A stretch of 64,000 nucleotides of DNA, taken from NCBI GenBank assembly GCA_044892525.1, contig CM097885.1, positions 310,001-374,000 of the forward strand, in the 5' to 3' direction. Below are positions 5,824 to 62,900 of the stretch, piece by piece (the stretch's first letter is position 1; the number at the start of each line of letters is the position of its first letter). The translations under genes were made by a program, and so were the position numbers. The notes under the pieces were generated by a model. It worked only from the letters and a program-made list of their open reading frames with translations, searched no databases and was not told the origin of the DNA. This stretch comes from Schmidtea polychroa. Taxonomy: Eukaryota.

Positions 5824-5918
<95 letters not shown>

Positions 5919-38007: not shown

Positions 38008-38101
<94 letters not shown>

Positions 38102-38341: not shown

Positions 38342-41300
38342 TCATCGAAAATAATCATGTCCAAAATAATTATCATCTGCTGGATCATGGAAATCATCTG
38401 TATCATGGAAATCATCTGTATCATCTGCTGAGATAGCTTCCGTTGAATCTATAAATATATCGGTGTCACCGCCCCTATAATGGCCATATGCCAAACTTTG
38501 ATTTTTATCCACCCAATTTCGTTTATCATCTCTACACGTCAAGGCTCTTTTATTATTTTTAATACTAAAAAGTTGGTGATTTTTTGACGTTATTCTAAAC
38601 TGAGGGACTGTGTATATTTTATCATTTAAATAACAATCTAGATACGACTGATGTGTTAGTCCAGTATCTTTCATACTTATCCCCTTAGCCTTCATACTTT
38701 CCTCATCACCCATCAAACTGTAACATTTAGGTCTCAAGAACACCCAATCTTTATATAATTACCCTTTATTCTCGTCTTTGAATTTGCCAATGACAGAATC
38801 AAGGTTCCTACTATATAAAGGATGATTTGGGTCATAATTCGAAGTATCTAATAATTGATCTCTAATCATCGCAGGTAAAAGATGTCAAGACTACAATGTT
38901 TAATTTCCAAGAAGAAGGAATCTGTGTCTCCAGCAACGATATTAATTTCGCAGTTGAATTCGTCGCGATATTTTTGCAACTTTTCATACTGCAGCTGGTA
39001 CATCCTGAGTTTGGATAAATCAAGTACGGTTTGACCAATGTAACTAGGTCTATTCAAACACACTATGTCCTTCCTCAATAAAACCGAAATCAAGTCATCA
39101 TCGATTTTCGTGGATTTACGAAAAGTCGGTTTCGAACAGAATGTTAATAATCTCTGTGAAGAATTACACAGACGTAAATTAATACGTTTTTTAAGATTTT
39201 CAACAGTCTTGCCGTAAAGACTGTTGTTTAATAATTTATAAAAATTTTTATCGAGTTTATTTGTCGACGCTGCTCGTAACGCCGTATTTGTGTTAATATA
39301 ATTTTTGAAAATTTTATCTTGTTTAAATTTAATAGCTCTATGTGTTTTTGATATTTTAACACCTAATTTAATAAATATTTGTAGAAGCCTCCAATGAAGA
39401 ACGTAGTTCCTCTTGGGGCTATGTGTAAGCAACAGCTTCTCTATTTTCGAACCCGGTACACACTTCTTTTCAGCGGCAACGGGAAGATCGTCCAGTTTGT
39501 CGTGAATTGACGTCGGTATTTCTAAATCCACTTCTATGGTATAACCATAATCAAGCAGATCTAAATCTACCGTTGTGCATTCAACAATTATATTATTTAA
39601 TAAATTATCATCAGTAACCCATTCAAAGTCACTGCAAGGTAATGGTTGACTTAAAGCCCAACCGTATAAATTATTTATATCTATGTAAAGCAAAGCGGTA
39701 TCCGGGTCTGTTTTTACATAATGTTTATTTACAAAAGTTAGTCCGCCACGGATACCGCCCTCGAAAAGTTTATACATCTCCATATCGGTGAGGAGCTCAA
39801 TTGGAAAGTTTAAAGTTAATAAGGCTGAATTCCAAGACATACCTGGAATCCCTAAGAAATTTAATGGCTCTAGTCGGTTATGAGCAATGAACTTAGCTCT
39901 AAATTGCTGGAAAAAATCGGCTAAAAGGAAAACATCAAGTTTTAAATAAACCATCATGTAATCGAAAAGTGAAGTACATGAAGTTTCAACCCAAATTCGC
40001 TGAGCTGTCTCATATTCAGCAGGAGTCACATCTTTCCAAATAGGTGGTAACTGATGAGTGTTATGTAAAACCTCTAATGAAGTTGCGACATCATAAGGAA
40101 AAATTCCCTTTGCAGTTATTATTGTACCCTGAAATTCTGATTCGGTCAAGGGTAAAGATGATAAAGTTTTGACAGCATTATTTAAAGACTCGCTGAGAAA
40201 TTGATAAGAGTCTATAAATTTAACAGTTAATGAGTCAATCTTAGCAAAAAGACTAAGGAATTTCTCGCTGGTTAAAGGAATACAACTAATATTCCATGAA
40301 TGATATTTTGAAAGGCCAAATTTCAAGATATGATGCAGATCATAACCCTTTAAATTATGAAATACTACAGGAAGGGTATGTCTAATTTGCCTCGACAGAT
40401 TACAAGTTGTACAAGCGGCACCAAGATATAGACCGGTAAAATGATCATGGTTCCTAACTGGACTAACTAAAGGCTTATTGCACAAATAACATGATGTGCT
40501 GTTTTCAAACATTAATTGTTGCTCATCTGTAATTATCATTTTCTTTTGATAATTTTTATAATAATAAGGAGTTACAATATATTTCCCTATCATTTCAATT
40601 TCAGTAAGAAATTGATCGACACAATCTAAACCGGTGAACGACTTATAAATTTTTACGCCTGTGAAATTATTAATAAAAAGCATACCGGCAGAAATAGGCA
40701 GATGACGTTGAAAGTAGCGAGTGTCTTTAGGTAAGATAGCCTCAAAGTCAGCGTAAATAACAAAGGGAGGAGTAACTGTTTTACTCCAATCAGTAAATTC
40801 TAAATATTTATTTTTAGGCAATGTGTACAAGGTAGTACCAAGCTGATTTTTATCGCAAAGACCCTTATGTCTATTAAAAGTGTCATCATTCCTAAAACCG
40901 TTTAAACATCTAGGGCACCACTGACTACAAATCCTAACAGGAGTGATTGAACTATTCCTACAATTAAGAAATCTATTTAGGTCTGTGATTCCAAGATAAT
41001 GATAATTATCATTCTTTTCGATTAATAATAAATTGATAGGTATGGCTCCTACTATCTTACTCCTATATATTATATCAATAAAGGGATGTTTCATAACTGC
41101 ATCTTCATCGGAAATGTCAATCAAAGCCTTTTCGTTATAAGTAAGAACATTAATACTATAACCCGGATTTTGTTGTTCAAATTTACTTATATTTGATAGT
41201 TTCATCGGCATATCATTAGGATCAAATTTAATTTCAGAAAGATTGTAGGAATTAGGGCGATTTCTATATTGCCTATTTATACAGTCATATTTAATAATTG

Positions 41301-42116
41301 ACAAGAAACTATACAAAAAGCAGAAGTGGTCATTATTAACTACATTAATGAGACAGCTTAAGTTTCTTAAAGATTTTGGGGTTTCAATAAAACTTCTACC
41401 ACTTAATCGACTTATTTCAGCAAATTTAGTAAGAACAAAGCTTATGTATTCTATTTTATTGATAGTCCAATTACTACCTTTCTCATTAATTTTAATTATT
41501 TTTTCATTTAAACGAGCAATACCTTCGTCAATGAATGTATCGCTCCAAACTCGGGCGGAATTCGAGATTACAAAAGATTGTAACTCATCATCTTTTATAA
41601 ATTCCACCTTTAGACAAAATTGAATTTTACATGATTTTAATTTATTTACATATAAATTTAATTTATTTATTAAAATTTCTGGTACAGAGACCGTTTTTAA
41701 ATCTAAAGACGAAACGTCCATTTTTAATATAATATGATTATTATTTAAATCACTGGTGACATCTACGACACCATAACCTATTTGATTAGTATTATTATTA
41801 ATACGATTATTATAATAAATATTACTACTACTACTATTATTATTATTATTATTATTATCAATTTCCTCATCACTTATGTTGATTATTTCATCATCATCAC
41901 TTATTGTGATTACATCAATAACTTTAGATTTTTTACTTGGTATTGAATTTATTTTTTCATTATTTTTTCTTTTATTCATATTAATTAGATTATTTATTTG
42001 TTCATTTAATTTATTTACTTGGTCTTTTAGAATATTTATTTCGTTTATATCATTATTATTATTATTGGTGCTGTTAGTATTATTGTTGGTGATATTATTA
42101 TTATTATTATTGTTGA

Positions 42117-42153
<37 letters not shown>

Positions 42154-42158
42154 GTTGA

Positions 42159-42195
<37 letters not shown>

Positions 42196-42239
42196 GTTGT
42201 TGATATTATTATTATTATTGTTGTTGATATTATTGTTGA

Positions 42240-42285
<46 letters not shown>

Positions 42286-43446
42286 GTTAACAAACGATTC
42301 ATATAAGCTATAGAAAAGAGACTTCTTAGAAGGTTTAAATTGTTGGAGATGGAGTCTATGCTTACTATAAAATTCCTTATACGTTATAACTTCAATAACC
42401 TCACATTTAGGGCATAGGATGTAGGTGACACCGTTATATTTATGACTATAATATCTTTCCATTATATCATTGCAGTCATTATGATATTGACTATTACAAA
42501 AGTTTTGGTATTTCAAACCTATGAAAATATTTTTATCATAAAATGTTTAAAAAATAATAAGATAATAATCATTTTTAAAGTTTAAGATATTTTTCGTAAG
42601 ATATTATTCAAAATTATCTTTTAAATAGTATCTTATAAAAAATATTATTCAAAATTATCTTTTAAATAGTATCTTATAAAAAATATTATAAAATATATAT
42701 ATATAATTTAATTCGTTTTCATAAATAATTTAATTCATTTTCATAAATAAATAAATAAGTAAATCTTCTTTTCATGAATAAATCTTCTTTTCAAAATCAT
42801 CATAAATAAATAAGTAAATCTTCTTTTCATAAATCATCATAAATAAATAAATAAATAATTCTTTTTCTAAAATAGTTTTTATTTTCATAAATAATATATA
42901 AAAGTTATTAATTATAATGTTCAAAATCATCATAAATAAATAGGTAAATCTTCTTTTCATAAATTATCATAAATAAATAAGTAAATCTTCTTTTCATAAA
43001 TTATCATAAATAAATAAGTAAATCTTCTTTTTCTAAAATAGTTTTTATTTTCATAAATAATATATAAAAGTTATTAATTATAATGTTCAAAATCATCATA
43101 AATAAATAGGTAAATCTTCTTTTCATGAATTATCATAAATAAATAAATAAGTAAATCTTCTTTTCATAAATTATCATAAATAAATAAGTAAATCTTCTTT
43201 TCATAAATTATCATAAATAAATAAATAAGTAAATCTTCTTTTCATAAATTATCATAAATAAATAAATAAGTAAATCTTCTTTTCATAAATTATCATAAAT
43301 AAATAAGTAAATCTTCTTTTGATGAATAAATCTTCTTTTCATAAATCTTCCTTTCAAAATCATCATAAATAAATCTTCTTTTGAAATATCTTCTTTTCAT
43401 GAAAAAATCTTCTTTTCATAAGTTTCTTCTTTTAATTATTATTATA

Positions 43447-44171: not shown

Positions 44172-44583
44172 TTAACCATCAAATTTTTTATACAACAACC
44201 ATGCCAAACAGTGTTGACCACATGTTTGAGTCAATGGATTTTGAAACATAGTTTTATTATATACAATAGGTTTCCCAATTGTTTGAAGTTTTGATATCAA
44301 CAAAGCAGGATAATAGAAACCCATAGGATCGAATACGAATATATTACTAGGTTTCACATATATAGCTATCCAATGTTCTCCACCAAGATGAGACGAATGA
44401 GTATTGATAATTATGGCTTGATTATTGCTCAAATAAGGAATTTTATCAAGAGGAAAAACTCCTACAAATTCATTTTCTAATATTTGTTTTCCAATTCGAT
44501 TAACCTGAACAGAACTACTTTAATAAAATTAAACAGTATCAAAAAACTTACTCCATGACAACTTTTTGTGTTTCTGTATACAT
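44172..44583 (-). CDS. Adenain-like cysteine maturation protease, spliced (intron 44551-44515); start at 44583 or 44556
   Basis: FVGVFPLD, IINT...GEHWIA (His), FDPMG (Asp), Q...TCGQHC (Cys). A GTAAGT donor and TAG acceptor link ATG GA|T TCT in frame. Confidence 0.9.
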
Positions 44584-45807
44584 TTATACTAGCACGGTTC
44601 TATTTGCAGTAATTTGAACTTCATTTTCAAATACTCCATATATTATAACATGTACCGGTTCAGTAATAGCTTTTGCAAACTTAATATCCAGTCGTAAATT
44701 CCCGTTTTGTGGTAGTTGACTCTGATATAAATCAAAATCAGGGGCTAAAACAAATGTAAAAAATGGATATTTGCTTTTAAATTCTTCTAGAGTTATTCCA
44801 CAATTCAAGTTTTTATCTAAGTAACCCAGATTTCTAACAATACTCTGCATATATGTCGCACAGTAATTATCGCTTTCGAAATCTTGAGTATATGTTTCTC
44901 TATAATCAGTATTTTTCGACAAAGTCAATGAAGTAACACCAAAATTTTTGAAAATTGAGCTGGAAGCAGTATAAGATCCATTATATTGTGTTTCACTTTG
45001 AAATGTTACCAGAATAAAATTAGGCATTCTTCTGTCACCAAATATTTGTTCTTTATAGAATGATGAAGCACCTTTAGCAATAGAAAATTGTACAATTTCC
45101 TTTGTTTTTAAAGGATAAATTGCATGTTTTGAATTAAGACCCAATTGATGACCAGCTAATACTGACGGGTCTACTCGAACTCTTCTCACCAATAATTTTG
45201 CATCAACTAATTGGCATATTGGTGCACCAGTTGCACTAGTAAGAGATAATGCAGAATCAGACCTTTTCAATCTAATTTGTACATTAACTCCTGGTAGCAA
45301 ATATTTCGGTTGATCCATAAAATCGAGTTGTAATGATGAGCACATAGTGAATGATTTTGAGCCTTTAACCCACTTTTTTCTTTCATCATCTGTTGCTGCA
45401 TAATCCATAGGTGTAAGACAGGTATTTTTAGTATCAGAATTGTAATTTAAAATAGTTTCTATCAAAGCCTTGTGAATGAATGTATTATTTCCGCCCTCAA
45501 TCTTAATATTATTAAATCCCAAGACTGCATCTTTAAACAGAGTATGAAACTTGAAATTGTTCGGTATTACATCTGCATTGGCATCCAAAACTTTTCTATC
45601 TTTATCTACAACCTTGATCTGAACAGTCACTAAATTATCATTCAAATCTAAATATTCAGTTTGCGAACCATTAATATAAAACTCGATATCATTTCTACTA
45701 TCAGTAATTGAATTCATAGGAAAAACTTCCTCAAAGGCCCCAAATTCGATTACAGCTTGAGGCGATGGTCTATCAAATATACATAATTCAGATTTACCAC
45801 AAATCAT
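44584..45807 (-). CDS. Major capsid protein (double jelly-roll, hexon-like)
   Basis: KSELCIF start, IEFYI...EYLDLND, QPKYLLPGV, GNLRLDIKFA...ENEVQITANR end; intact 407 aa at the canonical position between the PW-like gene and the protease. Confidence 0.9.
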   Translation of the reverse strand: MICGKSELCIFDRPSPQAVIEFGAFEEVFPMNSITDSRNDIEFYINGSQTEYLDLNDNLVTVQIKVVDKDRKVLDANADVIPNNFKFHTLFKDAVLGFNNIKIEGGNNTFIHKALIETILNYNSDTKNTCLTPMDYAATDDERKKWVKGSKSFTMCSSLQLDFMDQPKYLLPGVNVQIRLKRSDSALSLTSATGAPICQLVDAKLLVRRVRVDPSVLAGHQLGLNSKHAIYPLKTKEIVQFSIAKGASSFYKEQIFGDRRMPNFILVTFQSETQYNGSYTASSSIFKNFGVTSLTLSKNTDYRETYTQDFESDNYCATYMQSIVRNLGYLDKNLNCGITLEEFKSKYPFFTFVLAPDFDLYQSQLPQNGNLRLDIKFAKAITEPVHVIIYGVFENEVQITANRTVLV

Positions 45808-46166
45808 TTTGCAAATATAGTTCCATGTCCTTTCATTCGTTTGTTTATACGCGATATTCCATGTCCTTTACGTTTTGGAGCTGGGGCTGGGGGCGTATCT
45901 TTTTGAAACATACCAGCAACTCCAGGTAGAACCTTCCCTAACTCAGCTAAAGCATTTGTTTTTATGGATGGTAATATTTTCTGTTCATTCATAATAACAT
46001 CTTTTGCAGTTTTCATGCCAAAACTACCAATACGTTTAAGAATAGGAAGTGCAAATCTCCCTATTGTTTTTAACCAGCCTGATCCGTATTGTTTACCAAT
46101 AAAATATGGTAATTCACCGCCAGATTGGCTATCACTATACATACTAATAATATCGGAATTAGCCAT
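45804..46166 (-). CDS. Small basic core/membrane-active protein (PW/pVI-like)
   Basis: QSGG and QYGSG putative cleavage sites, then an amphipathic WLKTIGRFALPILKRIG helix and a basic tail ending in TIF. Confidence 0.78.
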   Translation of the reverse strand: MANSDIISMYSDSQSGGELPYFIGKQYGSGWLKTIGRFALPILKRIGSFGMKTAKDVIMNEQKILPSIKTNALAELGKVLPGVAGMFQKDTPPAPAPKRKGHGISRINKRMKGHGTIFAK

Positions 46167-47171
46167 CTACTTTACGAAAATGTAGTGTCAAATGAGTTTT
46201 TGAATCTTTTGGGAAGTTTATAAGTTTTCCACTATCGTCACGAATATTTATTTCTATATTGTTTATACATGAGCTTGCTATTGGTAAATACATGGGATTA
46301 TCGATATTTATATTGACAACTTCATCATGTTCATATTTTCCAATCCATACCGATTTCAAAAGAGGAACACTGGAATCACCAACAATTATAGGCTCAATAA
46401 TATTAGTATATATGAACATTTGTTGATGATGTTCAAGTATTCTTGGTTTACGTATACCAGTCGATTTTTCCCGATATTGCTGCTTCTCTAATCCAAGTGT
46501 ATTTGTCAAATTTTTATCAAATGTAACTTCGCAAATATCATCATTCAAACTGAAGGTAAACATCAAATCTTTCACAATGTCCAAACTTTTAAATATGTGT
46601 GAACAATTGTACTTTAAATATTTAAGTAACACATCAAGTTTATCAATATATAATTCGTCAGCAAAGGTGAATGATTCTTCAACTTCATTATTATACGACA
46701 CTGATATTTTGATTTCTTCTCTCATTACACTGTTTGCTTCAAATAGATTAAAGCGTAATAAATATTCTGTTTCCATAACTTCATTTTTCAACTTATTGCA
46801 ACCCAATCGTTTGGCATCTTCAATATATTCGAATGTTATTGTAAATGGTTTAAAATCACAACTGATATTTAATCCATCCTTGTAAAACATAGAGCAGTGC
46901 TGATCTAATAGTTGATTTGGAATATGATATGTTTTATCATAATTACTGATAATAAAGATACCGCTACATGTTTTCATAGCATTCCTTTTGAAATCAATCT
47001 TACATTGACTATAAAATGGGAATGTATTGTACACGAATGTAAAATCTTGCAGTGCAACTTCCCAGTCCCCATTTAAAGAAATCGGATTCTGGAGATTGAC
47101 CATGAATTTACTGGCTTGATTATCTGGATGAATAAGCGGGCAACTATTGCTTGGTAAAATAGTATAAAAAT

Positions 47172-48292
<1,121 letters not shown>

Positions 48293-48353
48293 TACAACAA
48301 GAAGATTTAATATTAAATTTAATGTCTGGTAATGAAGGATTAGCACCCATTGT

Positions 48354-48848
48354 TTATGATCGACTTCCTATTATTCCACCTAATAATGATATTGCTAAAG
48401 GTATCAATGCACCGATAAATCCCCCTTGTTGTTTATATATAATTTTTCTCATTTGTTGACGATTTTTATTATTTACTAATGATAGCAAAGGTTTCCTATG
48501 TTTACTCAATAATTGCTTTTTAGATTTACTGATTTTAATCTTACCTTTGACTACTTTAAGTATAATATCGAGTAAATCATCGACAACATAATTTGGAAAA
48601 GATTGCAAAATACTGTTTCTTTTCATACTGGGTGCCTTTAACAATGTATTGAAAAACGGGAAACTCCGATGATTTTTAACAACTTTTACTTTCTTAGTGG
48701 TTTTACTTTTAGTTTTAGGTTTAGGATTTTTCGAAAATAGATTCATTGCAGGAAAATTTTCTGTAATAAGTTCTTTAGATGGCGTATAACTAGTTGTTGG
48801 TGGAACTTTTGGTTGTTTTTTACTCGATATCCTTGTTTTTGAAAACAT
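48354..48848 (-). CDS. Basic core protein with adenovirus pX-like C-terminus
   Basis: Lys-rich; ends QQGGFIGALIPLAISLLGGIIG, resembling the GG-cleaved hydrophobic tail of adenoviral pX. Confidence 0.75.
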   Translation of the reverse strand: MFSKTRISSKKQPKVPPTTSYTPSKELITENFPAMNLFSKNPKPKTKSKTTKKVKVVKNHRSFPFFNTLLKAPSMKRNSILQSFPNYVVDDLLDIILKVVKGKIKISKSKKQLLSKHRKPLLSLVNNKNRQQMRKIIYKQQGGFIGALIPLAISLLGGIIGSRS

Positions 48849-48861
48849 GATTTATGTGTTT

Positions 48862-49500
48862 TCAAATTTGTTTTAAACTTTGTTTATATACCATGGCGCC
48901 TTTTGGGTTGAAAATATCTGTTTTTACCCGTATATCATCAGGACATTGTTGTGTGAAATCGAGAAATATATACCCATGAGGTATTTTCGTAGCATCTTGA
49001 AATGCACTGATAAGAAAATTACGGTTATTAGGGTATGCTTGTCGTCCAAGAAAATCGATGACAGTTGCATCTCTAGGATTCTTGAAAATAACTAGATATT
49101 GTACATTTAAATTACGTGTTCGATGTGCACCACCTTGATGAAATAGATTTTGTGTTATGAAAATAACTGTTACACCAACATGTCTGCAGATTTTTGTGAA
49201 TAAATTATTAAAATCCTTTTCTTTATTGGCTTCTTGATACAAATCATCGATAATGATGACATCATCTTTTTTCAAACGACTTGACCAGTTTTTATCAAAA
49301 CCCTTTACTATTTTCATGTTTTTCAATTGACAGAAACTTGATTGAGTCAATCCATGTTCTTCATCGGCGCCCCTATGCCAATAAATATTGTTGAATTTTG
49401 TTTTGAACAAATTAGATTTTAGTAATTTACAAACAAATAATGTTTTTCCACTACCACTCGGACCAACGATTTGGTATACTGCATCATTTCGTAATTCCAT
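48862..49500 (-). CDS. A32/FtsK-like DNA packaging ATPase
   Basis: Walker A GPSGSGKT, Walker B IIIDD, RH.....IFITQNLF, FKNPRD. Confidence 0.95.
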   Translation of the reverse strand: MELRNDAVYQIVGPSGSGKTLFVCKLLKSNLFKTKFNNIYWHRGADEEHGLTQSSFCQLKNMKIVKGFDKNWSSRLKKDDVIIIDDLYQEANKEKDFNNLFTKICRHVGVTVIFITQNLFHQGGAHRTRNLNVQYLVIFKNPRDATVIDFLGRQAYPNNRNFLISAFQDATKIPHGYIFLDFTQQCPDDIRVKTDIFNPKGAMVYKQSLKQI

Positions 49501-49604
49501 TTTTTAAATTTAAACTATATAATTATTGTTTATATTGATAATTTAAATGAACTCCTTTTTAAAATAACTATATATAACAGAGTTTTTATAATTATTTCAT
49601 TAAA

Positions 49605-50069
49605 ATGCTTTCAAATATAAATTACAGGGCAAAAGCTGATGTATCAAAAATGGTATTTCCAATGGGGAAACCACAACAACTTATCAATAGAAGTAAAAAA
49701 TATCCAATAATATATTTCAAAACTGGTAAATGTAGAATTATGGGGTGTAAGGAAATAATCAAAGCTAGTGAATATAATGTTTATGATTTAGAAATACAAT
49801 CGATAACCGTAACTTCCGATATAGGTTTTTCTTGTAATTTAAATAATTTGGCTAAATTAATACCATGCTTTTACGAACCAGAATTATTTCCAGCTTTGAG
49901 ATATATAAAATATAACCCTATGTGTGTAAATATATTCGCTAGCGGTAAGATAGTAATTCTTGGAATAAAAAATATTGATTACAAATGTATAGTTGATAAT
50001 ATCATATCTGAAATTAAATCAATAATTGAAGGAAAAGAATTTTTAGATTTTTTATTATCACTTAATTAA
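49605..50069 (+). CDS. TBP: TATA-binding protein homologue carried by the Polinton
   Basis: Second repeat IQSITVTSDIGFSCNL...YEPELFPALRY...VNIFASGKIVILG matches the TBP signature; the first repeat is shortened but keeps LSNI and YFKTGKCRIMGCK. Intact, intronless, inside the TIRs. Confidence 0.9.
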   Translation: MLSNINYRAKADVSKMVFPMGKPQQLINRSKKYPIIYFKTGKCRIMGCKEIIKASEYNVYDLEIQSITVTSDIGFSCNLNNLAKLIPCFYEPELFPALRYIKYNPMCVNIFASGKIVILGIKNIDYKCIVDNIISEIKSIIEGKEFLDFLLSLN

Positions 50070-50190
50070 TTATTTATCATTGCAAATTCAATGCAATTAA
50101 AATGCATGATTCTGATTGGTCAAAATCTAATTGGCTGATGATTATTTATAACAAAATGTTTTCGGTTTAGTTGTCATTTATTCAACAAAA

Positions 50191-50600
50191 ATGTACAACA
50201 TACAAAGTTCCGCAATCACCTCAATGAAAGAGCATGCAAATTATGGTAATTTCAAATTTTTATTATTACATTAATATATATAATTTTTAGAGATGAATAT
50301 CAATCAATTATCCTGCAAAGATTATGCTTCTATTATCCAGAATTAAATGAAATTCTACAAGATAGAGATCCAGCTATCATTCCGGATTTGGTATACAACC
50401 AAACTCGAATCTGGATATTCGATATAATAAACACCTTTCTATGGGATATCAAGATAGGAAGGGGGATGAAAGAAATGAAAGCAGAGGCTCCTTGCATTTT
50501 CGGATGTAGCTGTTGCAATTTCCGTTATCAACAATATGTTGAATGGTGTTTGGTGAAGACTCTGAGAAATCATCACTCGAGTCAGATTGTATCAAAATAA
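50191..50600 (+). CDS. Orphan Cys-rich small protein, probably two exons (50191-50245, 50293-50600)
   Basis: ATG exon ends TAT G|gtaatt. The frame of ORF 50388-50600 is open back to 50293, and CCAAT/TATA-like boxes lie upstream. Needs the second AG of TAGAG as acceptor. Confidence 0.5.
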
Positions 50601-50895
50601 ATTTTTTTTTTTTTTTTTTTTTTTATGTTGAATTGTTTTGTTTTTGTAAATCGAAATAATAGAAATAGAAATAATAATAATAGAAATAATATAAGTAATA
50701 ATAGAAATATTAGAAATAATAATAATAAAAAACAATATTTATAATAAAAACATTAATGCAACATTAATGCAAATGACATGCAATTTAAACAAAGACATGT
50801 AATTTAAACAAAGACATACATCAATCTGATTGGTTGATAAACAATAGTCATAGGTATAAAAACCCTGTACCATTTCATTTTAATCATTATTTACG

Positions 50896-51315
50896 ATGAC
50901 AAAGAAAATTTCAAGCACTGAAAAGCCAAAAGTTGTTCCAGAACTTGTACAACCTGTTCAAATGTTCCACAACTATAAAATGTATTTTTTAAAAGAAGAA
51001 ATCAATATAAAATTGGTGTCACCGATCAAGCTAATTCCAACTAAATTTCAATTCTTATCCGGCACGCTTTCAATGTTAGATGTTAAATCTATTGATGAGG
51101 TTTTCAAACGGTTGAATACGAATCTATCTTGTAATCAACATGCCTGGTTCAACAACAGATATGCAAGATTTTATGATTCATTTGATGAAATCGGTTTCAA
51201 AGAAAACGAAAATTGGTATATAACAATTGCAATCCAAGGATATAAAGTTGATAATAATGATGTGTATTCTCCAATTTGGAAAATTATGTCTGCTAGACTT
51301 TCACAACTATTTTAA
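50896..51315 (+). CDS. Hypothetical 139-aa protein, possible OB-fold ssDNA-binding protein
   Basis: Clean ORF with CCAAT (ATTGG) and TATAAAA upstream and AATAAA downstream; beta-rich aromatic C-terminus WYITIAIQGYKV...SPIWKIMSARL. Fold is a guess. Confidence 0.6.
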   Translation: MTKKISSTEKPKVVPELVQPVQMFHNYKMYFLKEEINIKLVSPIKLIPTKFQFLSGTLSMLDVKSIDEVFKRLNTNLSCNQHAWFNNRYARFYDSFDEIGFKENENWYITIAIQGYKVDNNDVYSPIWKIMSARLSQLF

Positions 51316-51448
51316 TGTTATATTTAATAAATGTATTAGTCATATTTGTTTTTTCTCTTTATTAATTGCAACATTAATGCAAATGACATGCAAATTTAAC
51401 AAAGAAAATCTATAAACAAACTTATAATATAGTTTTAAAGTGTTATTA

Positions 51449-51838: not shown

Positions 51839-52624
<786 letters not shown>

Positions 52625-53118: not shown

Positions 53119-55590
53119 TTAGTCCTCATCAGACAAAATAACGTCATCGATATCGATATCATCTTCTCCAAAATCTTCTCCAACATCTTCAATAAGTTCT
53201 TCCTCATCTTCTCCAACATTTTCATCAAATTCATCTCCAACAATTTCTCCAACATTTTCTCCAATATTTAATTCACTTAATCTTACATGCCCATTTTTTC
53301 AGCAGCTTCAGGGAAATCATCCAACTTCTCATTTAGCTCAGAAGAAATTACAAGATCAACTTCAAGAGTGTATCCATAAGACAAAGAATCAAGATTTAAA
53401 TTCCTACTTTCATCCATTATTAAATCAAATCCATCAAGAACCCAACTAAATTCACCACAAGATAATGATTGACTTAAAGCCCAACCATAAAGATTATTAA
53501 TATCTATATAAAGTAACTCGGTGTTCTCATCGGTTTTTACGTAATGCTAATTCACAAAAGTAATACCGCCTCTTATTCCACCCTCATAAAAGCTAAACAT
53601 TTCGTTTTCAGTTATGAGCTCAAATGGTTCATTTAAAGACATTAATGCAGAAGACCAAGACATACTGGAATTCCGAAATAATTCAATGGTTCTAATCTAT
53701 TGTGAGCAATAGATTTCAACCGAAACTGATGAAAGAAATCAGCCAAAAGAAAACAATCAAGTTTTAAGTAGATCATCATATAATCTAATAAAGTTAGGCA
53801 ATTAGTTTCTACCCAAATCTCCTGAGCTTTTTCATACTAAAGCTCAGTAACACCCTCCCAGATTGGTGGTAATTCATAAGTAGTTTGGAAAATATCTAAA
53901 GATGTAGCGAAATTATAAGGGAAGATTCCTTTTTCAGAAACTATAGTGCCAGAAAAAACAGAATTAGTAAAAAGCAAAGAATTCAAAGTTTTGACTGCTT
54001 TAGCTAAAGAATCATTAACAAATTGATAAGAATCAATGAATTGATAAGAATCAATTCTTTTGCCTAAATGCGCAATCAAAGAAATAAATTTTTCAGTCGT
54101 TATTGGGATGCAACCTAAAGTCCAATTTTTAAATTTATTTAATCCGTATTTAAGAATATGGTGCATATCGTATCTCTTCAAGTTGTGAAATACGATAGGC
54201 AAAATTTTATTTATTTTCCTATTTATGTTACATGTGCTACAAGCTGCACCCAAGTATTTCCCAGTAAAATGATCGTGATCTCTAACAGGATCGACGATAC
54301 ATTTCAAACAAAGGTAACAAACAGATGCACTAACAAATTGACGTTGTTCAATTTTTGTTAATTTCATCATAGGTTTGCTACCCATTTTATAATAAAAAGG
54401 AAGAACCTTATTTAATGCTATATCCTCTATAGCACTTAAAAAACTCTCGACGCAATCTAAACCTATGAACTGTTGATAAGATTTAGATCCATCAAAGTTA
54501 TTTACAAGTAAAAGACCAGCAGATATTGGCATGTGTCGTTGGAAATGAACATTATCAGAAGGTAAAATAGCCTCAAAATCGGCATAAACTATAAAAGGAG
54601 GAGTTACTGTTTTCGACCAGTCAGTAAACTGCAATAATTTATTTTGAGGGAAAGTGTAAAGAGTTGTTCCTAATTGATTACGTTTACATAATATTTCATG
54701 TTTTTCCAGTCCGTGTTTATACCTAAACCCATTCAAACACCGATGGCACCATAATGAACGTATGCGTGTAGGACAACTAGTGTTGATACCACAATTCAGT
54801 AACCTATTTAAATTACTTATAGCAACGTAATGGAAATTGTTTCCTTTATTTAAAAGTAGTAAATTAATTACAGTTCTATTTAAAACTTTAGAACGATGTA
54901 TAATATCTAAATGTGGATGTTTTAATACATAATTATCAGTTAATTGTTTGCTATTATCATATGAAAAAACATTAATTATTACACCCGAATTTTTAGATTC
55001 AAATTTCCTAATGTCTTTTAATTTCAGAGGTAATTCTAACGGGTCGTATACTAAGTCAGATAAATTATAACTCGATGTCCTATTTCTAGCATAACTACTA
55101 ACTTCATCATATTTTAAAATAGCTAAAATGCTATATAAAAACATGAATCATCAGTGTTTTTTATATTAATTAAACAATATTTATTTTTTAGATAAGTAGG
55201 TGTTTCAATGAAACTCCTACCACTTAATCTACTTAACCTACTTACTTTTGTTATGGTGAAATGTATTTCAGTAATATTTTTTATAATCCAATTGCTTCCT
55301 AACTCTGTAATGTTAGTTATTTTCTCATTTAGTTCTTTAATGCCTTCATCAAAAAATGATGCAGTTAAAGGCTTTGCATAATTTGAGATATTATTAACCT
55401 TTATTTCCCCGTCTTTTTCAAATTCGATTGTTATTCCGAATTGAATTTTGACGGAGCCTTATTGTTGTTCAGGAAATATTACTTCTTTTATATTTAAGTC
55501 GCTGTATTTAAGCTTAATATTTGATGGGTACCTCTTAAATCTCTTTGTACTGTTGGTACATTTCCACCTATTTGTATTATATTTAATCCA
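53119..55590 (-). pseudogene. polB: Family B pPolB pseudogene (inverted duplicate of about 12765-15264)
   Basis: Shares the IDSYQF duplication, the CTT TAG stop and the core deletion with the 12266-15264 copy. Confidence 0.9.
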
Positions 55591-56659: not shown

Positions 56660-58520
56660 AATTTATTAAGAAAAAGTTGGAATAATAGTCTGTAATTGAG
56701 AATTGAAATTTTTTAATGAAAATCTCTAATAGAAATGTTTTAAGATAATTTTTAATGAAAATTTTAATGGAATAATTTTCAAAGATAATTTTCAACGAAA
56801 ATTTTAATTGATTAATTTTTTAAGTAAATTTTTTTAATGAAATTTTTTTTATAGATTAATAATAATAATATTATTATTTCAACCAAATACTATACAACAC
56901 ATAAAAATAACTAGACACATAACAAAACATATATATATTTACTAAACACATAAAAATTAACTAGACACATAAAAAACATAAAAATTACCAAACAAATAAA
57001 AAGAACAAATGTAAAGATATAAACTTTTATTTAATAAAATCAGTCTTCATCAATATCAATATCATCTTTTCCAACATCTTCTCCAACATTTAATTGATTT
57101 AATATTACATACCCATATGACAAACTAGTATTTTTCCCCACCCAAACCCTTTTGTCATCTTTGTTAGTTAGTTATTTAATAAAATCAGTCCTCATCAGAC
57201 AAAATAACGTCATCGATATCGATATCATATTCTCCAAAATCTTCTCCAACATCTTCAATAAATTCTTCCTCATCTTCTCCAACATTTTCATCAAATTCAT
57301 CTCCAACAATTTCTCCAACATTTTCTCCAACAATTTCTCCAACATTTTCTCCAATATTTAATTCAATTAATCTTACATGCCTATATGCGAGACTAGTATT
57401 TTTCCCCACCCAATCAAAGAAATAAATTTTTAAACCGTGATTGGGATGCAACCTAAAGTCCAATTTTTAAATTTGTTTAAACCATATTTAAGAATATGGT
57501 GCATATCGTATCTCTTCAAGTTGTGAAATACGATAGGCAAAATTTTATTTATTTTCCTATTTATGGCGCATGTGCTACAAGCTGCACCCAAGTATTTCCC
57601 AGTAAAATGATCGTGATCTCTAACAGGATCGACGATCCATTTCAAACAAAGGTAACAAACAGATGCACTAACAAATTGACGTTGTTCAATTTTTGTTAAT
57701 TTCATCATAAGTTTGCTACCCATTTTATAATAAAAAGGAAGAACCTTATTTAATGCTATATCCTCTATAGCACTTAAAAAACTCTCGACGCAATCTAAAC
57801 CTATGAATTGTTGATAAGATTTAGATCCATCAAAGTTATTTACAAGTAAAAGACCAGAAGATATTGGCATGTGTCGTTTGAAATAATAGCCTCAAAATCG
57901 GCATCAGCTACAAAAGGAGGAGTTATGGTTTTCGACCAGTCAGTAAACTGTAATAATTTATTTTGAGGGAATGTGTAAAGAGTTGTTCCTAACTGATTTT
58001 TTATGTGTTTAGTTAATGTTTATATGTTTTGTTATGTGTCTAGTTATTTTTATGTGTTTAGTTAATTTTTATGTGTTGTATAGTATTTGGTTGAAATAAT
58101 AATATTATTATTAATCTATAAAAAAAATTTCATTAAAAAAATTTCCTTAAAAAATTAATCCACTAAAATTTTCGTTGAAAATTATCTTAAAAAATTTTTA
58201 TTAAAGATTTTCATTAAAAAATTTCAATTCTTAATTACTGACTATTATTCCAACTTTTTGTTAATAAATTTAAAAATCTTACTTTAATTTACTTATTACT
58301 TTAATTAAAAAATTTGAAACTTAATTTACTTATTTCAGCCCATTGATTACCAAATATATCTATTAATTTACTTTAATTCAAAAATCTTAGCCCATAATTT
58401 ACTATATTTCAATTTTTAGACCCTTAATTTACTGTAATTCAATTTTTGAACCATCATTTACTTTAATTTTAAATTTAAGAACCATAATTTACTTTAGTTT
58501 AAAAATTTGAACCTTAATTA
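56660..58520. pseudogene. Scrambled family B Polinton remnants (pPolB pieces between inverted subterminal sequences)
   Basis: ORF 57430-57870 is the Exo/HNH region and 57185-57410 is the acidic tail; about 56660-56960 and 58000-58280 are inverted copies of each other. Confidence 0.8.
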
Positions 58521-59939: not shown

Positions 59940-62900
59940 AAACTACTCCCATTGACCTCACCAACGATATACCGACAACCACTGCCACTCAACAAAACCA
60001 AACTCCCACCAACAATACTACTACAGTTCCACCCCACACTGCTAAAACAAAAATATCCAATAATACTTTTCGGAGAGAACTAAGAGAACTCTCTAAACAC
60101 TTTTGGACCATGTTCCACAAAGACCCCTCCTACATAGATACTATAAAAGAATATAATAGTAAGATATACAGCAACAACAGCAACCAACCACACCCAATTA
60201 ATGCTTCTGATTCCCACAACAATATAACGGAAGCAAACCCACCTGCACCGGCCAACAACAACCTTTCTACATCCACCACTAACAATACCACTAGCGTCCC
60301 ACAACCTCATTCCATCCCCTTCCCTACCACACCCACAGAAACTCAATTTTCCCCATTCAATGATAGTCAATCAAAGACAATACAATCAACAATTAAACCG
60401 CCCACCTACACTACTACATTAAATACATGCAATAATAATACCGAAACCCCAATACACTCATCCCCAAAAAAGGATACAAATATCTCCTACAATAAAAGTG
60501 ATAAGCATCTTATACAAGAAATCCACAGAATAATCAACTGCAACAATCAAGAAACCTCCAAAAAACATGAAACAACCACAAAAAACCTGCAACAAAGCAT
60601 AATACAACAACAACATGAACAAGCTAATACACACAAAACATTAACGCTCCTAATCACACAAATGACAAAATTGCAACAACAAATACTCACACACAATACA
60701 GCAGCATCGTCCCAGCTCCCTCACGACATTGATGATGAACACCTAACTCTCACACCCAGGGATGATGACCTAAACATACCTCCACAATTCCATCAACCCG
60801 AACCCTCAGACAATGAATCAAATGAATCCCAATCGTCCGATGACAATGACGGATATATCACAGAAATAGAACGACAAGTCCATGTGAATAACAAAGTCGA
60901 CATCGATGAGACCCCAACTCAACAAACACCATCACAATATGAACAAAATAACACAACCCAACAAGAACAAACAATAAAAAGAACAACATCTTCCCGCGGC
61001 TCCCTTTTTTCACCAATGGAAAACATAACTCCAGTGGACCTCAACGACCCCTTTAACACGTATCATGCACTAGATGTCCTCAACATAAAAGACTTTGCAA
61101 TCGTTAAAGACATAATGAAAACGCCACCAGCACTTTATACACAAACCTCTGAATCATCCACCAATACACCCAATCCACTATATAACCTGCTCAACACCAA
61201 CGAACAACCAGTTACACAAAACCTCACTACGATCGACTCCCCATTCACTCTCAAAAAACAGGCACTATTCAACAACATGAACACATGAAAAGCATGCACG
61301 ACCGAATTATCAAAGACACAGACACATTTGAATGCCTAATGTGCCAAAGACAAAGGAAAAAAGGACAGAACCAAACCAAATTCCTTCTCACAAATATTGA
61401 AGAACACTGGCTTGATTATCATCCCGAAAAACAAATCCCTGGTACTAGAGAACAATATAACGACAAAAGGAGAATCCTCACACTAGAGCTCAACGAAGAG
61501 GGAACACTATTATGCACATACATATGCAAGAAAAACCCCTGTGATATACATCTGACTGTGAAGACCACCGCCACGGACATACTCAAACACATCTCTACAA
61601 AACACAAGAGTAAAGTATTTGACCAGACCACAAACATCAAATGCCACTGCGGTGAAACAATAAGCTTTGATAATATGAAACAACACCACCAATCACACAT
61701 GGGAATACTTGAACCCACTGAAATAAACATTGAGCCCCCCCCCCCACAAACATTCCAGTAACCTCCAAAGACATAGACTCTGACTGACTAAACCAGCACC
61801 AGATCTTCGCATACATGCTAACACATGCAACTACTGAAAACACTATATACATAGATAGCTTTATAGGTCTTGCATGCATTGAAAAACACTACCAAACCTT
61901 TTTTTCTGCCTTCCCATTTCATAAATATCCTGGATGGATAGACCTAATTTGGCCCATGAACATAGAAAAGAACCTCTGGATACTCTTCTACATTAATAAA
62001 CAACGCAACCTTTCTACAATTATTGACCCCACTTGCCAAATTAGCACCATGAAACATTACAACACAGCAACAACAATACTCAACATACTGACCAACCTAC
62101 AAAACATAATAACCACAAATGAATTCACCTTACAAGAACTAACATATCCCAGATGCAATGAAACAAAGCAATCAGGATACTACATATGCCACTTTGCCAA
62201 ATGCCTAGCCTCCAACAGATGCATCACACTCCCCAACATACAAAAGATACGCACAGACCTTAACAAAATAACAAACCTAATAATATATAGAAGGAAAGCA
62301 ACTGATGATGTGACCAGATATACCGCATTCATTGATGACATAATTACTCAGCTTGACACTAATACTATTGATGTTGATGAGAGCTTCCAAGAAATAGCCA
62401 AGATACATGAAGCTATATACCCTAACAAATACAAAAATAAAACAATACCAGCAAATATCCTCAACACAAAAGGCAATAAGCGCTTAGTATTCGAATTACG
62501 ACTAGACTTTGATAGAAGACCAAAAGCAACAATCGAAAAAATACTCACCAAAAATGAAAACACAACGACCACACCGACAGACGATGACATCTACAAAAAC
62601 TTCCAAACCACAACAAAACACATAACTAAATATAGTACACCAGATACACAACCCTCATATATTGACCTTATATCAGATAAACCCATAACAGACACAGAAC
62701 TCAACGAATCCATACTCAAACTTGACAGCACATCAGCCCCTGGTAGTGACAAAATCACATACAAAGAATGGAAAAAGATAGACCCAAAAAACAAATTTAG
62801 ACTTGCACTTTTTAACAACATACTACGCAATGGACATAGCCCCAAAACCTGGAAAACCTTTAAAACGAAACTCATCCTTAAACCAGGCAAAGAGCAATCA

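Follow-up and report, generated by a model that had tools for sequence, protein, structure and literature searches.

A shortened TATA-binding protein in a Polinton clade whose morphogenesis genes are preceded by a strand-biased ATAAACA box

The TATA-binding protein (TBP) carries two pairs of phenylalanines that kink DNA, and the Glu-Pro-Glu-Leu stirrup of its C-terminal repeat contacts TFIIB. TBP-like factors are also found in large DNA viruses, examples being VITF-3 of poxviruses and the TBP-like genes of African swine fever virus (ASFV) and mimivirus. Polintons, or Mavericks, stand at the root of many lineages of eukaryotic DNA viruses, and to our knowledge their gene expression is essentially undescribed. 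In beta- and gammaherpesviruses, as portrayed in the parts of three reports drawn on here, a late TBP mimic (ORF24 of KSHV, BcRF1 of EBV, UL87 of HCMV) brings host Pol II to a late promoter box that is TA-rich and non-canonical (PMC7498053, PMC12529657, PMC12197705). Nucleocytoplasmic large DNA viruses are described, in the part of a further paper used here, as pairing TBP-fold promoter factors with short motifs at individual genes (PMC12917281). Finally, maps of the MELD viruses, which are polinton-like and have an adintovirus-like PolB, bear the label 'TBP' (Starrett et al. 2021; PMC8502044), and the legends, which concern datasets from non-animal eukaryotes, speak of genes 'similar to TATA binding proteins' and of 'homologs of host proteins'. 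As far as section 3.4 and the legends of that paper go, a Polinton TBP exists in print only as a figure-legend label, with no analysis of its architecture, conservation, selection or cis-elements; it may or may not be of one family with the protein described below.

We analysed a stretch of 64,000 nucleotides from Schmidtea polychroa (contig CM097885.1, positions 310,001 to 374,000, assembly GCA_044892525.1), referred to as the window. It contains an element of about 14.4 kb which, having a polymerase, an integrase, terminal inverted repeats, an A32 ATPase and an adenain-like protease, is a Polinton/Maverick. A preliminary description of this DNA had placed an intact ORF of 154 residues on the plus strand (49605-50069) inside the inverted repeats, head-to-head with the packaging ATPase across a spacer of 104 bp (49501-49604), and both statements were borne out by the repeats found at 37813-38112 and 51896-52239 and by the Pox_A32 match of the neighbouring gene. 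We refer to the product of this ORF as TBPL. The features of the element are as follows.

37813-38112: left terminal inverted repeat, 96-97% complementary to 51896-52239; it also contains a simple repeat, and ATAAACAA faces inward at 37986-37993 (plus strand)
38342-38713, minus strand: conserved ORF of 123 residues downstream of the polymerase, with tblastn relatives beside pPolB in L039, L040, L078, L082, L085, L087 and L106
38866-42462, minus strand: polymerase (pPolB; Pfam DNA_pol_B_2 PF03175, E 1.2e-27, 97.4 bits)
44175-44519, minus strand: fragment of an adenain-like cysteine protease (Pfam Peptidase_C5 PF00770, 27.9 bits against a cut-off of 21.3), its frame broken upstream in the six-frame reading
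44584-45807, minus strand: major capsid protein candidate, 407 residues, with relatives 53-58% identical in L039, L040 and L071 and 24-27% identical (tblastn) in L085, L087 and L107
45804-46166, minus strand: basic ORF of 120 residues between the penton-like and capsid genes, its position conserved in L039, L040, L060, L064, L069 and L071
46159-47226, minus strand: penton-like minor capsid protein candidate, an ORF of 355 residues with syntenic relatives
47750-48350, minus strand: retroviral-type integrase, interrupted by a simple repeat and a frame change (Pfam rve, 31.9 bits, just under the cut-off of 32.6)
48354-48848, minus strand: ORF of 164 residues with a hydrophobic C-terminus and syntenic relatives
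48862-49500, minus strand: A32/FtsK-type genome-packaging ATPase (Pfam Pox_A32 PF04665, 33.7 bits against a cut-off of 22.8)
49501-49604: divergent ATPase-TBPL spacer, 104 bp, with ATATAAACAA at 49526-49535 on the ATPase strand and a TATA-like box at 49569-49577 (plus strand)
49605-50069, plus strand: TBPL ORF, 154 residues, intact from ATG to TAA, with a complete C-terminal and a shortened N-terminal repeat
50190-50600, plus strand: remnant of a Cys-rich ORF of about 120 residues, intact in sister copies (L022:1948-2313), its frame broken in the window copy
50896-51315, plus strand: OB-fold protein of 139 residues (model pLDDT 88.8), its gene linked to TBPL in close relatives
51896-52239: right terminal inverted repeat, with an inward-facing ATAAACAA at 52015-52022 (minus strand)

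With protease, integrase and Cys-rich ORF all out of frame, the window copy is decaying. The two integrase ORFs (47750-48292 and 48123-48350) lie in different frames; an intact syntenic relative (L071:3468-4544) reached 56.9 bits against rve. For 46159-47226 we presume the name 'penton-like' from position, not from a family match. The major capsid candidate gave no sequence match in Pfam or in a PDB profile search, and the ESM Atlas cluster closest to it is named 'double jelly roll-like domain' (score 0.98), which we take as a lead only. Pfam and PHROG searches with the 123-residue ORF gave no match, and PHROG searches with seven element ORFs returned nothing except one weak match. The Cys-rich ORF was found only in the host genome's own subfamilies; considered as a cofactor of TBPL, it was dropped for want of a relative in the metagenome loci. 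For the 139-residue protein the best folds were ASFV CP312R (Z 7.2), the SSB of phage Enc34 (6.9) and T7 gp2.5 (6.8), and on this structural likeness it is probably a single-stranded-DNA-binding protein. A canonical AATAAA follows its gene at 51326-51331. Of four runs of Logan contigs, three of which are only guessed to be RNA, one (X4) held two contigs ending in a non-templated A-run that begins after 51342, 11 nt past AATAAA, which we record as a weak hint. Logan contigs also cover the TBPL ORF (e.g. X1 record 7, 49707-50051), a kind of coverage that cannot show transcription.

The Pfam TBP profile (PF00352) matched TBPL over residues 62-125 (E 8e-15, 54.9 bits against a cut-off of 22.9) and detected one repeat only. 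With E values up to 10, a phmmer search of the PDB returned 35 distinct sequences, of which 34 are named TBP or TFIID and the other bears a locus tag alone (ECU04_1440). The best match was 2z8u (9.5e-17), and by sequence TBPL scored highest against archaeal TBPs. Its identity to solved TBPs was 22-32%, and the repeat shared with the TBP database matches spans only about 65-85 residues. Residues Y90-E91-P92-E93-L94-F95-P96 align with the TBP stirrup (YEPEQFPG or YEPELFPG in solved TBPs), and in the phmmer alignments F95 and F111 fall on the stirrup and on the Phe of the IF.SGK strand. The YEPELFP stirrup and the two intercalating phenylalanines previously assigned to the C-terminal repeat are thus found in alignment with solved TBPs.

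Structure prediction extended this likeness to the whole core. Five AlphaFold models had mean pLDDT values of 94.1-96.5 each, with a pTM of 0.85 for the top model. Foldseek returned 44 matches in the PDB at E ≤ 0.001, all of those listed being TBP entries, with query-normalised TM scores of 0.59-0.72; non-TBP folds began at E 1.2e-2. VIA-align placed model residues 1-142 onto residues 164-337 of human TBP (Z 12.6, rmsd 2.4 Å, 142 residues), and 38 TBP entries lay at Z 10.4-12.6, the next fold at Z 6.2. The asymmetric, Polinton-encoded TBP fold that had been proposed was therefore recovered by superposition on TBP cores. The first strand begins at residue 2, so that there is no N-terminal extension, as had also been stated. 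The N-terminal repeat is indeed shortened, but the earlier view that it keeps only the F..GK strand did not hold: this half of the model has four strands (2-10, 25-28, 35-38 and 42-48), and residues 27-50 align with residues 100-123 of the C-terminal repeat (hhalign, E 3e-5), revealing an internal repeat. In this half H1 is absent and H2 is reduced to a remnant of four residues (54-57), so the strands of both halves are present and the full S1-H1-S2-S3-S4-S5-H2 two-repeat architecture is not. As modelled, TBPL is a minimal asymmetric TBP with a whole C-terminal repeat and an N-terminal repeat cut down to its beta-strands.

With cellular and archaeal TBPs and TBP-related factors (PF00352), TBPL thus has in common the whole-core fold, the pseudo-repeats and the complete C-terminal repeat with YEPELFP and both phenylalanines. 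It differs in being encoded by a mobile element and in having 154 residues, against about 180 for the TBP core. It also retains three of the four kinking Phe positions, F95 and F111 in the C-terminal and F38 in the N-terminal repeat; the fourth falls at Q24/Q25 in a global hhalign alignment of the halves that itself lacks significance (probability 0.18%, E 0.23). Polar residues that cellular TBPs have at the centre of the saddle are replaced, Asn by S66 and Thr by L119 and M46, and binding of TATA-type DNA is therefore not assured. New polar residues, N6 and R44, are added on strands that align with the DNA-facing strands of TBP.

We then asked how widely this gene is shared. Scanning the host genome (781 Mb) with PF00352 gave 2998 first-look TBP candidates, and all 150 that were scored lay above the cut-off. 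A TBPL relative was present in 20/20 fetched non-host-type loci (L011-L030), and in 17 of them an ATPase ORF of at least 90 residues divergently adjoined it. Three element subfamilies keep TBPL beside the ATPase at a protein identity of 54-60%, with between-subfamily dN/dS values of 0.20, 0.20 and 0.31 at dS 1.1-1.8, which is not neutral and marks purifying selection between lineages. In a set of 5.8 billion proteins, 97 matched TBPL at E ≤ 1e-3, and a profile search gave 60 representative clusters of relatives at E ≤ 1e-30. Of 116 confirmed metagenome stretches with TBPL we kept 80, which together with the IMG/VR locus L031 make 81 loci; 37 of them carry a hallmark Polinton gene and 28 an ATPase. 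ATPase identity in the metagenome relatives was 70-74% in the closest (L035-L046, L056 and L071), 60% in L069 and 31-41% in distant ones, and TBPL-bearing elements include polymerases 33-34% and a capsid 27% identical to those of the window element. Near the capsid end, not fixed beside the ATPase, lies the TBPL gene of L057, L060, L064 and L069. Across 46 family members E91, P92, E93 and F95 of the stirrup, F38, F111, R44 and N6 are invariant, and L94 is present in at least 90% of the sequences. In IMG/VR, L031 was the sole relative (33% identical over residues 41-124), and that database yielded no ATPase relative and no TBPL-less sister Polintons.

Within this large family of proteins of about 150 residues in Polinton contigs, TBPL is a selectively maintained member of the TBP fold and a core gene of a broad Polinton clade. 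The statement that it does not belong to the standard Polinton gene set is thus fair for the literature searched, but not within the TBPL clade. TBP-like ORFs flanked by Polinton genes, expected in this genome and its relatives, turned up in all three subfamilies and in metagenome loci. The gene is short and lacks introns, and several TBP paralogues of the host are intronless too (L004, L007), as one might expect of a neutral passenger or of a retrocopy recently derived from the host. TBPL is, however, only 25-26% identical to the two paralogues L004 and L007, it diverges among three subfamilies at dN/dS 0.20-0.31, and it occurs in distant metagenome Polintons; these data refute that origin, to which we give next to no chance. 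The earlier word 'captured', taken as a recent capture from the host, fails on the same identity and on the age of a family whose polymerases are about 33% identical. The canonical TBP locus of the host gave a tblastn match of only 41 residues to TBPL. The host's canonical TFIIB gene is split by introns, and a full-length TFIIB orthologue was found (P0240).

The spacer between the two divergent genes holds TATATA at 49516-49521 and TATATATAA at 49569-49577, as had been noted. They are not the conserved signal, and subfamily B does not retain the box at 49516-49521; the TBPL-side box does resemble the canonical TATA boxes upstream of the gene in relatives, such boxes (e.g. TATATAAGG, TATAAAAG) being present in the window, L041, L053, L056, L060, L065 and L069. 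The only block common to the spacers of subfamilies A, B and C was TTGTTTATAT, which reads ATATAAACAA on the ATPase strand.

An unbiased scan of all 8-mers in seven morphogenesis blocks put TATAAACA at the top (36 observed, 3.6 expected, 0 antisense) beside ATAAACAA (46 observed, 4.8 expected, 1 antisense). In nine blocks (51,937 nt), ATAAACA occurred 74 times in sense and never in antisense, against Markov expectations of 13.9 and 8.4; none of 200 simulations gave more than 27 sense or fewer than 2 antisense copies. The replication and TBPL parts (27,144 nt) had 8 sense and 3 antisense occurrences, and neither single-base variants of the box nor canonical TATAAAA/TATAAAT displayed a comparable skew. 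In the window, the motif search gave these boxes besides those of the inverted repeats.

49526-33, 48880-87, 48429-36, 48350-57, 47238-45, 46259-66, 45841-48 and 43929-36, minus strand: eight sense-strand ATAAACAA boxes of the morphogenesis block
50837-50844, plus strand: ATAAACAA box, 59 nt upstream of the 139-residue ORF's start codon
51412-51419, plus strand: further ATAAACAA box

Box placement is syntenic across elements, and the spacing to the following ORF start clusters at 32-57 nt and around 98-100 nt. Many boxes are embedded in coding sequence, often that of the preceding gene, and one abuts the integrase ATG. Where the box falls in the C-terminal part of the integrase, the amino acid ahead of Lys may be D, H, N or Y, yet its codon is always NAT, which points to a constraint at the DNA level. 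If the box acts in a TATA-like manner about 30 nt before the start site, leaders of only about 3-12 nt would result for many genes. In L107 and L111, the most distant TBPL loci examined (31-32% identity), the box was not enriched. What is new here is this strand-biased ATAAACA at syntenic places before morphogenesis genes. TBPL and the box are associated by co-occurrence within one clade, and TBPL would be the reader of the box. A one-directional box common to the capsid-module genes suggests, from its distribution in the sequence, that the element may bring its own switch for late expression.

A strand bias of this kind could also arise if ATAAACA acted in RNA, in reinitiation or processing of a polycistronic late transcript, with TBPL replacing host TBP at ordinary TATA promoters. 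Restriction of the box to the sense strand, its frequent location within coding sequence and the 4-8-nt overlaps of the packed late ORFs (45804-45807, 46159-46166), as in termination-reinitiation systems, would agree with this. A signal in RNA gives no reason to purge the reverse complement (0 observed, 8.4 expected, and a minimum of 2 in 200 simulated runs), and boxes are also present in the divergent spacer, ahead of the block's first gene, and in both inverted repeats; we consider this reading very unlikely.

The boxes in the two inverted repeats bear equally on the possibility that TBPL belongs to the replication or packaging machinery and binds DNA there in a sequence-specific or architectural role, for instance at the termini or at a packaging signal together with the ATPase, the box being read by, for example, host forkhead factors. 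The forkhead core is RTAAAYA; ATAAACA fits it, and a host factor could thus read the box. TBPL also adjoins the packaging ATPase in the three genomic subfamilies and in 28 of the 81 loci, the SSB-like gene is linked to TBPL in the close clade, and the helix-grip/TBP-like fold weakly matches rolling-circle Rep proteins (Z 6.2). However, a packaging signal or an origin does not explain the 74:0 strand bias, the placement before ORFs or the avoidance of the antisense motif; the position of TBPL relative to the ATPase varies, as in the four loci with the gene at the capsid end; and DNA binding alone does not need a TFIIB-contact stirrup that is invariant in 46 members. As for forkhead factors, the seven blocks had just 9 sense copies of their optimal core GTAAACA but 63 of ATAAACA, and enhancer-type sites do not need directionality. 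We regard this explanation as rather unlikely.

The same stirrup, kept while the partner surfaces of the N-terminal lobe are lost, gives TBPL the architecture that one would expect in a dominant-negative factor, and the preliminary description had raised the idea of a decoy or competitor that sequesters TFIIB or occupies host TATA boxes and so damps transcription of the host or of rival elements. We would put long odds against this, since it predicts neither a conserved, directional, module-specific box in the element nor the invariant new residues N6 and R44, and since a general shut-off of the host would be costly to an element with so many germline copies.

Still longer odds apply to a role of TBPL with a polymerase other than Pol II, be it Pol III via Brf or that of a co-infecting large DNA virus, as with virophage-like helper promoters. 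In its favour, short per-gene promoter motifs are typical of viruses using viral polymerases, archaeal TBPs gave the highest sequence scores, and TBP-like factors occur in nucleocytoplasmic large DNA viruses, both in the part of the literature used here (PMC12917281) and among the ESM Atlas neighbours of TBPL, one cluster of which has known members that are mostly Nucleocytoviricota, the others being commonest in Methanobacteriota or Uroviricota. Such large DNA viruses bring their own RNA polymerase, whereas neither the ORF list nor Pfam gave an RNA polymerase subunit within the Polinton. The element, moreover, has an integrase gene and has built up numerous copies in the germline, its 139-residue gene is followed by the canonical AATAAA, and the promoters of TBPL itself look like host TATA promoters.

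The reading that we favour, at a probability of roughly 55%, is that the element encodes, in TBPL, a factor that confers selectivity for a late promoter box, by analogy with the herpesviral vTBP; the earlier idea of element-specific (late) promoters fits the evidence. In such a scheme, a canonical TATA promoter, served by the host's TBP and Pol II, would drive transcription of TBPL, probably in the same early phase as that of the linked SSB-like gene. TBPL would then bind the non-canonical (T/C)ATAAACA(A), in sense, before the ATPase, integrase, penton-like, capsid and protease-side genes, and its retained C-terminal stirrup would recruit host TFIIB and Pol II. It would escape control by TFIID, TFIIA, NC2 and Mot1-type factors, because the N-terminal-lobe surfaces that they use are gone. 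The outcome would be element-specific, probably late expression of the morphogenesis module, analogous to that by the late-gene TBP mimic of beta- and gammaherpesviruses. The likeness to the herpesviral vTBPs is functional only and implies no common membership: both would work alike, but vTBPs are large, act in a six-protein complex (vPIC) and contact Pol II directly, whereas TBPL is a bare core of 154 residues with an orthodox TFIIB stirrup. In its fullest form the proposal is that of a Polinton clade with a two-tier, virus-like transcription programme, running from host TBP to a partner-stripped TBPL and on to host TFIIB and Pol II, independently of TFIID, at a one-orientation YATAAACA before every morphogenesis gene, even in coding sequence; this we put forward tentatively, at somewhat less than even odds.

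Judged by the 2998 first-look TBP candidates, Polintons are abundant in the host genome, and an element TBP together with a directional box gives a testable model in which the morphogenesis module is turned on independently of the genes for replication. As a natural 'minimal TBP' that has kept the DNA-facing sheet and the TFIIB stirrup and shed the helices of one lobe, TBPL may help to work out which surfaces of TBP initiation requires, and the invariant polar residues of its shortened half suggest how the TBP fold can be retuned away from TATA. If true, the two-tier programme would be the first promoter-specificity system described for Polintons and would involve the smallest natural TBP.

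The intact 154-codon ORF that encodes TBPL, the TBP-like protein, was found where the preliminary description had placed it, inside inverted repeats and head-to-head with a packaging ATPase across 104 bp. From the gene content between these repeats, the element is therefore a Polinton of ~14.4 kb.

37813-38112 and 51896-52239, terminal inverted repeats (TIRs), 96-97% complementary, enclosing TBPL and the ATPase
38866-42462, protein-primed B-family polymerase (PF03175, 97.4 bits)
44175-44519, adenain-like protease fragment (PF00770, 27.9 bits)
48862-49500, minus strand, packaging ATPase, 212 aa (poxvirus A32 family match, 33.7 bits; cut-off 22.8)
49605-50069, plus strand, TBPL, intact, 154 codons (ORF reading)
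50896-51315, plus strand, 139-aa ORF with an OB domain model (pLDDT 88.8)

The element also carries a 407-aa candidate capsid protein (closest ESM Atlas cluster 'double jelly roll-like', a lead only), a penton-like ORF within the inverted repeats, and an rve integrase that is interrupted in this copy. TBPL, a broken Cys-rich ORF and the 139-aa ORF occupy the strand opposite the morphogenesis block (the ATPase-to-capsid genes). The window copy is partly decayed, with protease, integrase and Cys-rich ORF all out of frame. Kapitonov and Jurka 2006 reportedly names no TBP. Long AAT/ATT-type simple repeats lie in the polymerase N-terminus (an in-frame poly-Asn tract; 41876-42313), the integrase (47801-47903) and the TIRs. 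The surroundings are a nest of mobile elements: adjoining the element are fragments of a second Polinton polymerase (53837-55144 and 57430-57870), a reverse-transcriptase ORF that continues beyond the window edge (61815-63998) and a 614-aa low-complexity ORF (34179-36023).

The Pfam TBP family matched TBPL residues 62-125 (E 8e-15), and phmmer against the PDB (E up to 10) returned 35 distinct sequences, 34 of them named TBP or TFIID and one bearing a locus tag only, with archaeal 2z8u as the best match (E 9.5e-17). An AlphaFold model from 46 family members reached a mean pLDDT of 96.5 and a pTM of 0.85, and Foldseek against the PDB gave 44 matches at E <= 0.001, with TBP entries throughout among the matches listed. 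VIA-align placed model residues 1-142 onto human TBP 164-337 (Z 12.6, rmsd 2.4 Å, 142 residues) and ranked 38 TBP entries at Z 10.4-12.6, the next fold scoring 6.2; the TBP fold suggested earlier is thus borne out. While the C-terminal half of the model is a textbook repeat (S1'-H1'-S2'-S3'-S4'-S5'-H2'), the N-terminal half comprises S1 (2-10), strands 25-28, 35-38 and 42-48 and a four-residue helix (54-57), and is thus a TBP repeat minus H1 and nearly all of H2. The preliminary description rightly called this repeat shortened but credited it with a single strand, whereas four are kept and residues 27-50 match C-terminal repeat residues 100-123 (hhalign, E 3e-5).

In TBP, four Phe kink the DNA and the C-terminal stirrup contacts TFIIB. 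Three Phe of this type (F38, F95 and F111) are invariant among the 46 TBPL family sequences; a global hhalign of the two halves puts the fourth position at Q24/Q25, in an alignment that falls short of significance (probability 0.18%, E 0.23). The stirrup E91-P92-E93-L94-F95 is invariant or nearly so in the same sequences, so that the C-terminal features noted earlier, stirrup and both Phe, hold across the family. At the saddle centre, which Asn and Thr occupy in TBPs, alignments give S66, L119 and M46, and polar N6 and R44, on the strands of the shortened half, are both invariant (46 sequences).

Scanning the 781-Mb genome with PF00352 yielded 2998 first-look candidates; all 150 that were scored exceeded the cut-off, and the top ten rows were five host-type loci with two repeats each. 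A TBPL relative was present in 20 of 20 other loci fetched from this genome (L011-L030), with three subfamilies: A (window-like, 96-98% identity, 154 aa), B (~59%, 156 aa) and C (~55-58%, 170 aa). In 17 of these 20 loci TBPL has a divergent neighbour in an ATPase ORF of 90 aa or more; the ORFs listed for L019, L023 and L028 include none such beside it. Between subfamilies dN/dS was 0.20 (A-B), 0.20 (A-C) and 0.31 (B-C), at dS 1.1-1.8; that TBPL is a neutral retrocopy is refuted, and we give it next to no probability. Ratios within subfamilies (0.34-0.85, from few differences) fit the decay to be expected once copies have inserted. In the ATPase-TBPL spacer of subfamily C, a (TA)n run adjoining the TBPL start varies from ~10 to ~100 nt between copies (L017:1897-2098 vs L016:1193-1305).

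With two intronless TBP paralogues of the host, TBPL shares 25-26% identity, and tblastn against the canonical host TBP locus gave a 41-residue match only. A recent capture from this host, one sense of the 'captured' TBP first proposed, is therefore excluded. The host genome itself holds several intronless two-repeat TBP paralogues (L004, L007) and, beside an intron-bearing canonical TFIIB, at least 12 clustered, intronless open frames of 301-310 aa that match the TFIIB repeat. The one examined (L118:5572-6477, minus strand; G000:C3 near 39.08 Mb) has a TFIIB zinc ribbon and a cyclin repeat, and further copies lie at C3 38.2-38.4 Mb and C1 23.8-24.2 Mb; judged from sequence, the host set of basal transcription factors looks expanded.

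Outside this genome, a collection of 5.8 billion proteins contained 97 TBPL relatives at E <= 1e-3, mostly 144-178 aa and 35-59% identical (ENA, Logan, JGI and MGnify), 13 of which JGI automatically names TBP. A profile search of 1.84 billion representatives gave 3375 matches at E <= 1e-3, the weaker of which will include ordinary TBPs, 759 at <= 1e-10 and 60 at <= 1e-30. Among JGI metagenome contigs, 116 TBPL-bearing stretches were confirmed and 80 kept, making 81 loci with L031 from IMG/VR. By tblastn with the window-element proteins, 50 of the 81 had another element gene, 37 a hallmark gene (ATPase, integrase, capsid, penton-like or polymerase) and 28 the ATPase, the remaining loci being mostly contigs of 1-3 kb; TBP-like ORFs beside Polinton genes thus occur here as in the genome. 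Close relatives (L039, L040, L071) are 72-74% identical in ATPase and 54-58% in capsid, and distant ones (L085, L087) 34% in polymerase, 27% in capsid and 35-37% in TBPL. The position of TBPL varies: it is divergent from the ATPase in the window element, directly upstream and co-directional in most metagenome elements, and beyond the capsid/protease end in L057, L060, L064 and L069.

Accessory genes at the TBPL-ATPase position vary as well, one metagenome element having a RING-finger (C3HC4) ORF there (L071:1710-2168). The distant L085 and L087 encode a parvovirus-type phospholipase A2-like domain (L085:3994-4395, L087:8996-9394; PF08398, 42.5-42.7 bits), possibly a factor for virion entry. 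Three divergent elements share, after their protease or capsid end, a conserved Cys/His-rich ORF of ~155 aa that matches nothing in Pfam (L069:5870-6352, L040:9591-10052, L087:6495-6956), and L040 has two tandem penton-like paralogues (5616-6671 and 6671-7684) against one in the window. L108, a 19.4-kb metagenome contig of a different virus-like type, carries a 37%-identical TBP-like gene and TATTAAACTAG six times on one strand only; it may be another TBP-plus-motif pairing.

Subfamilies A, B and C have a single block in common in their ATPase-TBPL spacers, TTGTTTATAT (ATATAAACAA on the ATPase strand), 33 nt upstream of the ATPase ATG. Both TA-rich strings described earlier are present in the spacer, but TATATA at 49516-49521 is not kept in subfamily B and so fails as a conserved signal. 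Boxes with the ATAAACA core (YATAAACA) recur in the window element.

164-aa ORF, one box at -39, sense strand
Integrase, two boxes upstream, sense strand
Penton-like gene, one box at -19, sense strand
120-aa ORF, one box at -100, sense strand
Capsid gene, one box at -41, sense strand
139-aa gene, one box at -59, sense strand
Each TIR, one box, inward-facing

In the window, TATAAACAA occurred 13 times against 4.3 +/- 1.9 expected, a count reached in 0 of 100 shuffles. An unbiased 8-mer scan of seven ATPase-to-capsid blocks (44,842 nt) ranked TATAAACA first (36 vs 3.6 expected, 0 antisense) and ATAAACAA second (46 vs 4.8, 1 antisense), followed by simple-repeat words. Across 51,937 nt in nine blocks, with subfamilies B and C represented, ATAAACA occurred 74 times in sense and 0 in antisense (Markov expectation 13.9 and 8.4); in 200 simulations, sense counts never exceeded 27 and antisense counts never fell below 2. 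The corresponding counts were 8 and 3 in those parts of the elements that carry the polymerase and TBPL (27,144 nt), and 15 and 24 over the remaining 49,574 nt of the window. Sense-to-antisense ratios in the seven blocks were 9:2 for GTAAACA, 9:16 for TATAAAA and 14:12 for TATAAAT. Action of the box at the RNA level is improbable, as the purging of its reverse complement argues against it. The base preceding ATAAACA (T 36, C 16, G 7, A 4 in 63 instances) argues against a poly(A) signal. Box placement is syntenic among elements, with distances to the next ORF start clustering at 32-57 nt and near 98-100 nt. Where a box overlaps the coding sequence of the integrase C-terminus, the amino acid ahead of Lys may be D, H, N or Y, yet NAT encodes it in every case, so that the DNA is what is constrained. 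In L107 and L111, the most distant loci, the box was not seen.

Upstream of TBPL itself ATAAACA is absent; canonical TATA boxes followed by G/C stand there in the window (49569-49577), L041, L053, L056, L060, L065 and L069, and a different block is common to the distant group (L085 and similar). The 139-aa gene is linked to TBPL in the close clade (L039:1788-2135, L032:1503-1838 and others), so that TBPL goes together with an accessory gene of replication and stays separate from the morphogenesis block. The best fold matches of the 139-aa protein, at middling scores, are viral or phage ssDNA-binding proteins (ASFV CP312R Z 7.2, Enc34 SSB 6.9, T7 gp2.5 6.8), and its model marks it as a candidate SSB of Polintons in protein-primed replication. 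It is unlikely that TBPL itself serves replication or packaging and that a host factor, for example a forkhead protein, reads the box.

Most likely, we infer, TBPL is the element's own promoter-selectivity factor. A host-type TATA promoter would drive its production, and its saddle is predicted to bind the YATAAACA box: the C-terminal half, which is intact, would sit on the TA-rich 5' portion, and the retuned N-terminal half, to which N6 and R44 belong, on the portion with the C:G pair. The conserved stirrup would then recruit TFIIB and Pol II; service to another polymerase is very unlikely, and a decoy role, raised in the preliminary description, is rather improbable. The N-lobe helices of TBP are surfaces used by TFIIA, TAF1, NC2 and Mot1, and their loss would remove these surfaces from TBPL. 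Boxes lie so close to the ATG codons that action at -30 would leave very short leaders, and one of them directly adjoins the ATG of the integrase; the site of action may therefore be nearer the start site than that of a TATA box.

Virus-encoded TBP-like factors are already known from herpesviruses and poxviruses, and TBPL is likewise encoded by a virus-like element. In the literature retrieved on polintons, Mavericks or adintoviruses with TATA-binding protein, TFIID or promoter motifs, the sole relevant item was Starrett et al. 2021 (PMC8502044), in which 'TBP' is a label in the figure legends to maps of MELD viruses and whose section 3.4, legends of Figures 5 and 6 and preprint legends give no further TBP analysis; in the relevant part of PMC10675990, the TBP belongs to a different element. 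Altogether, the initial observation is confirmed and its interpretation partly supported. In TBPL, a broad clade of Polintons carries a minimal TBP that is both conserved and selected. Its pairing with a candidate directional promoter box is first made here, and the mechanism that would join the two is put forward as a proposal.
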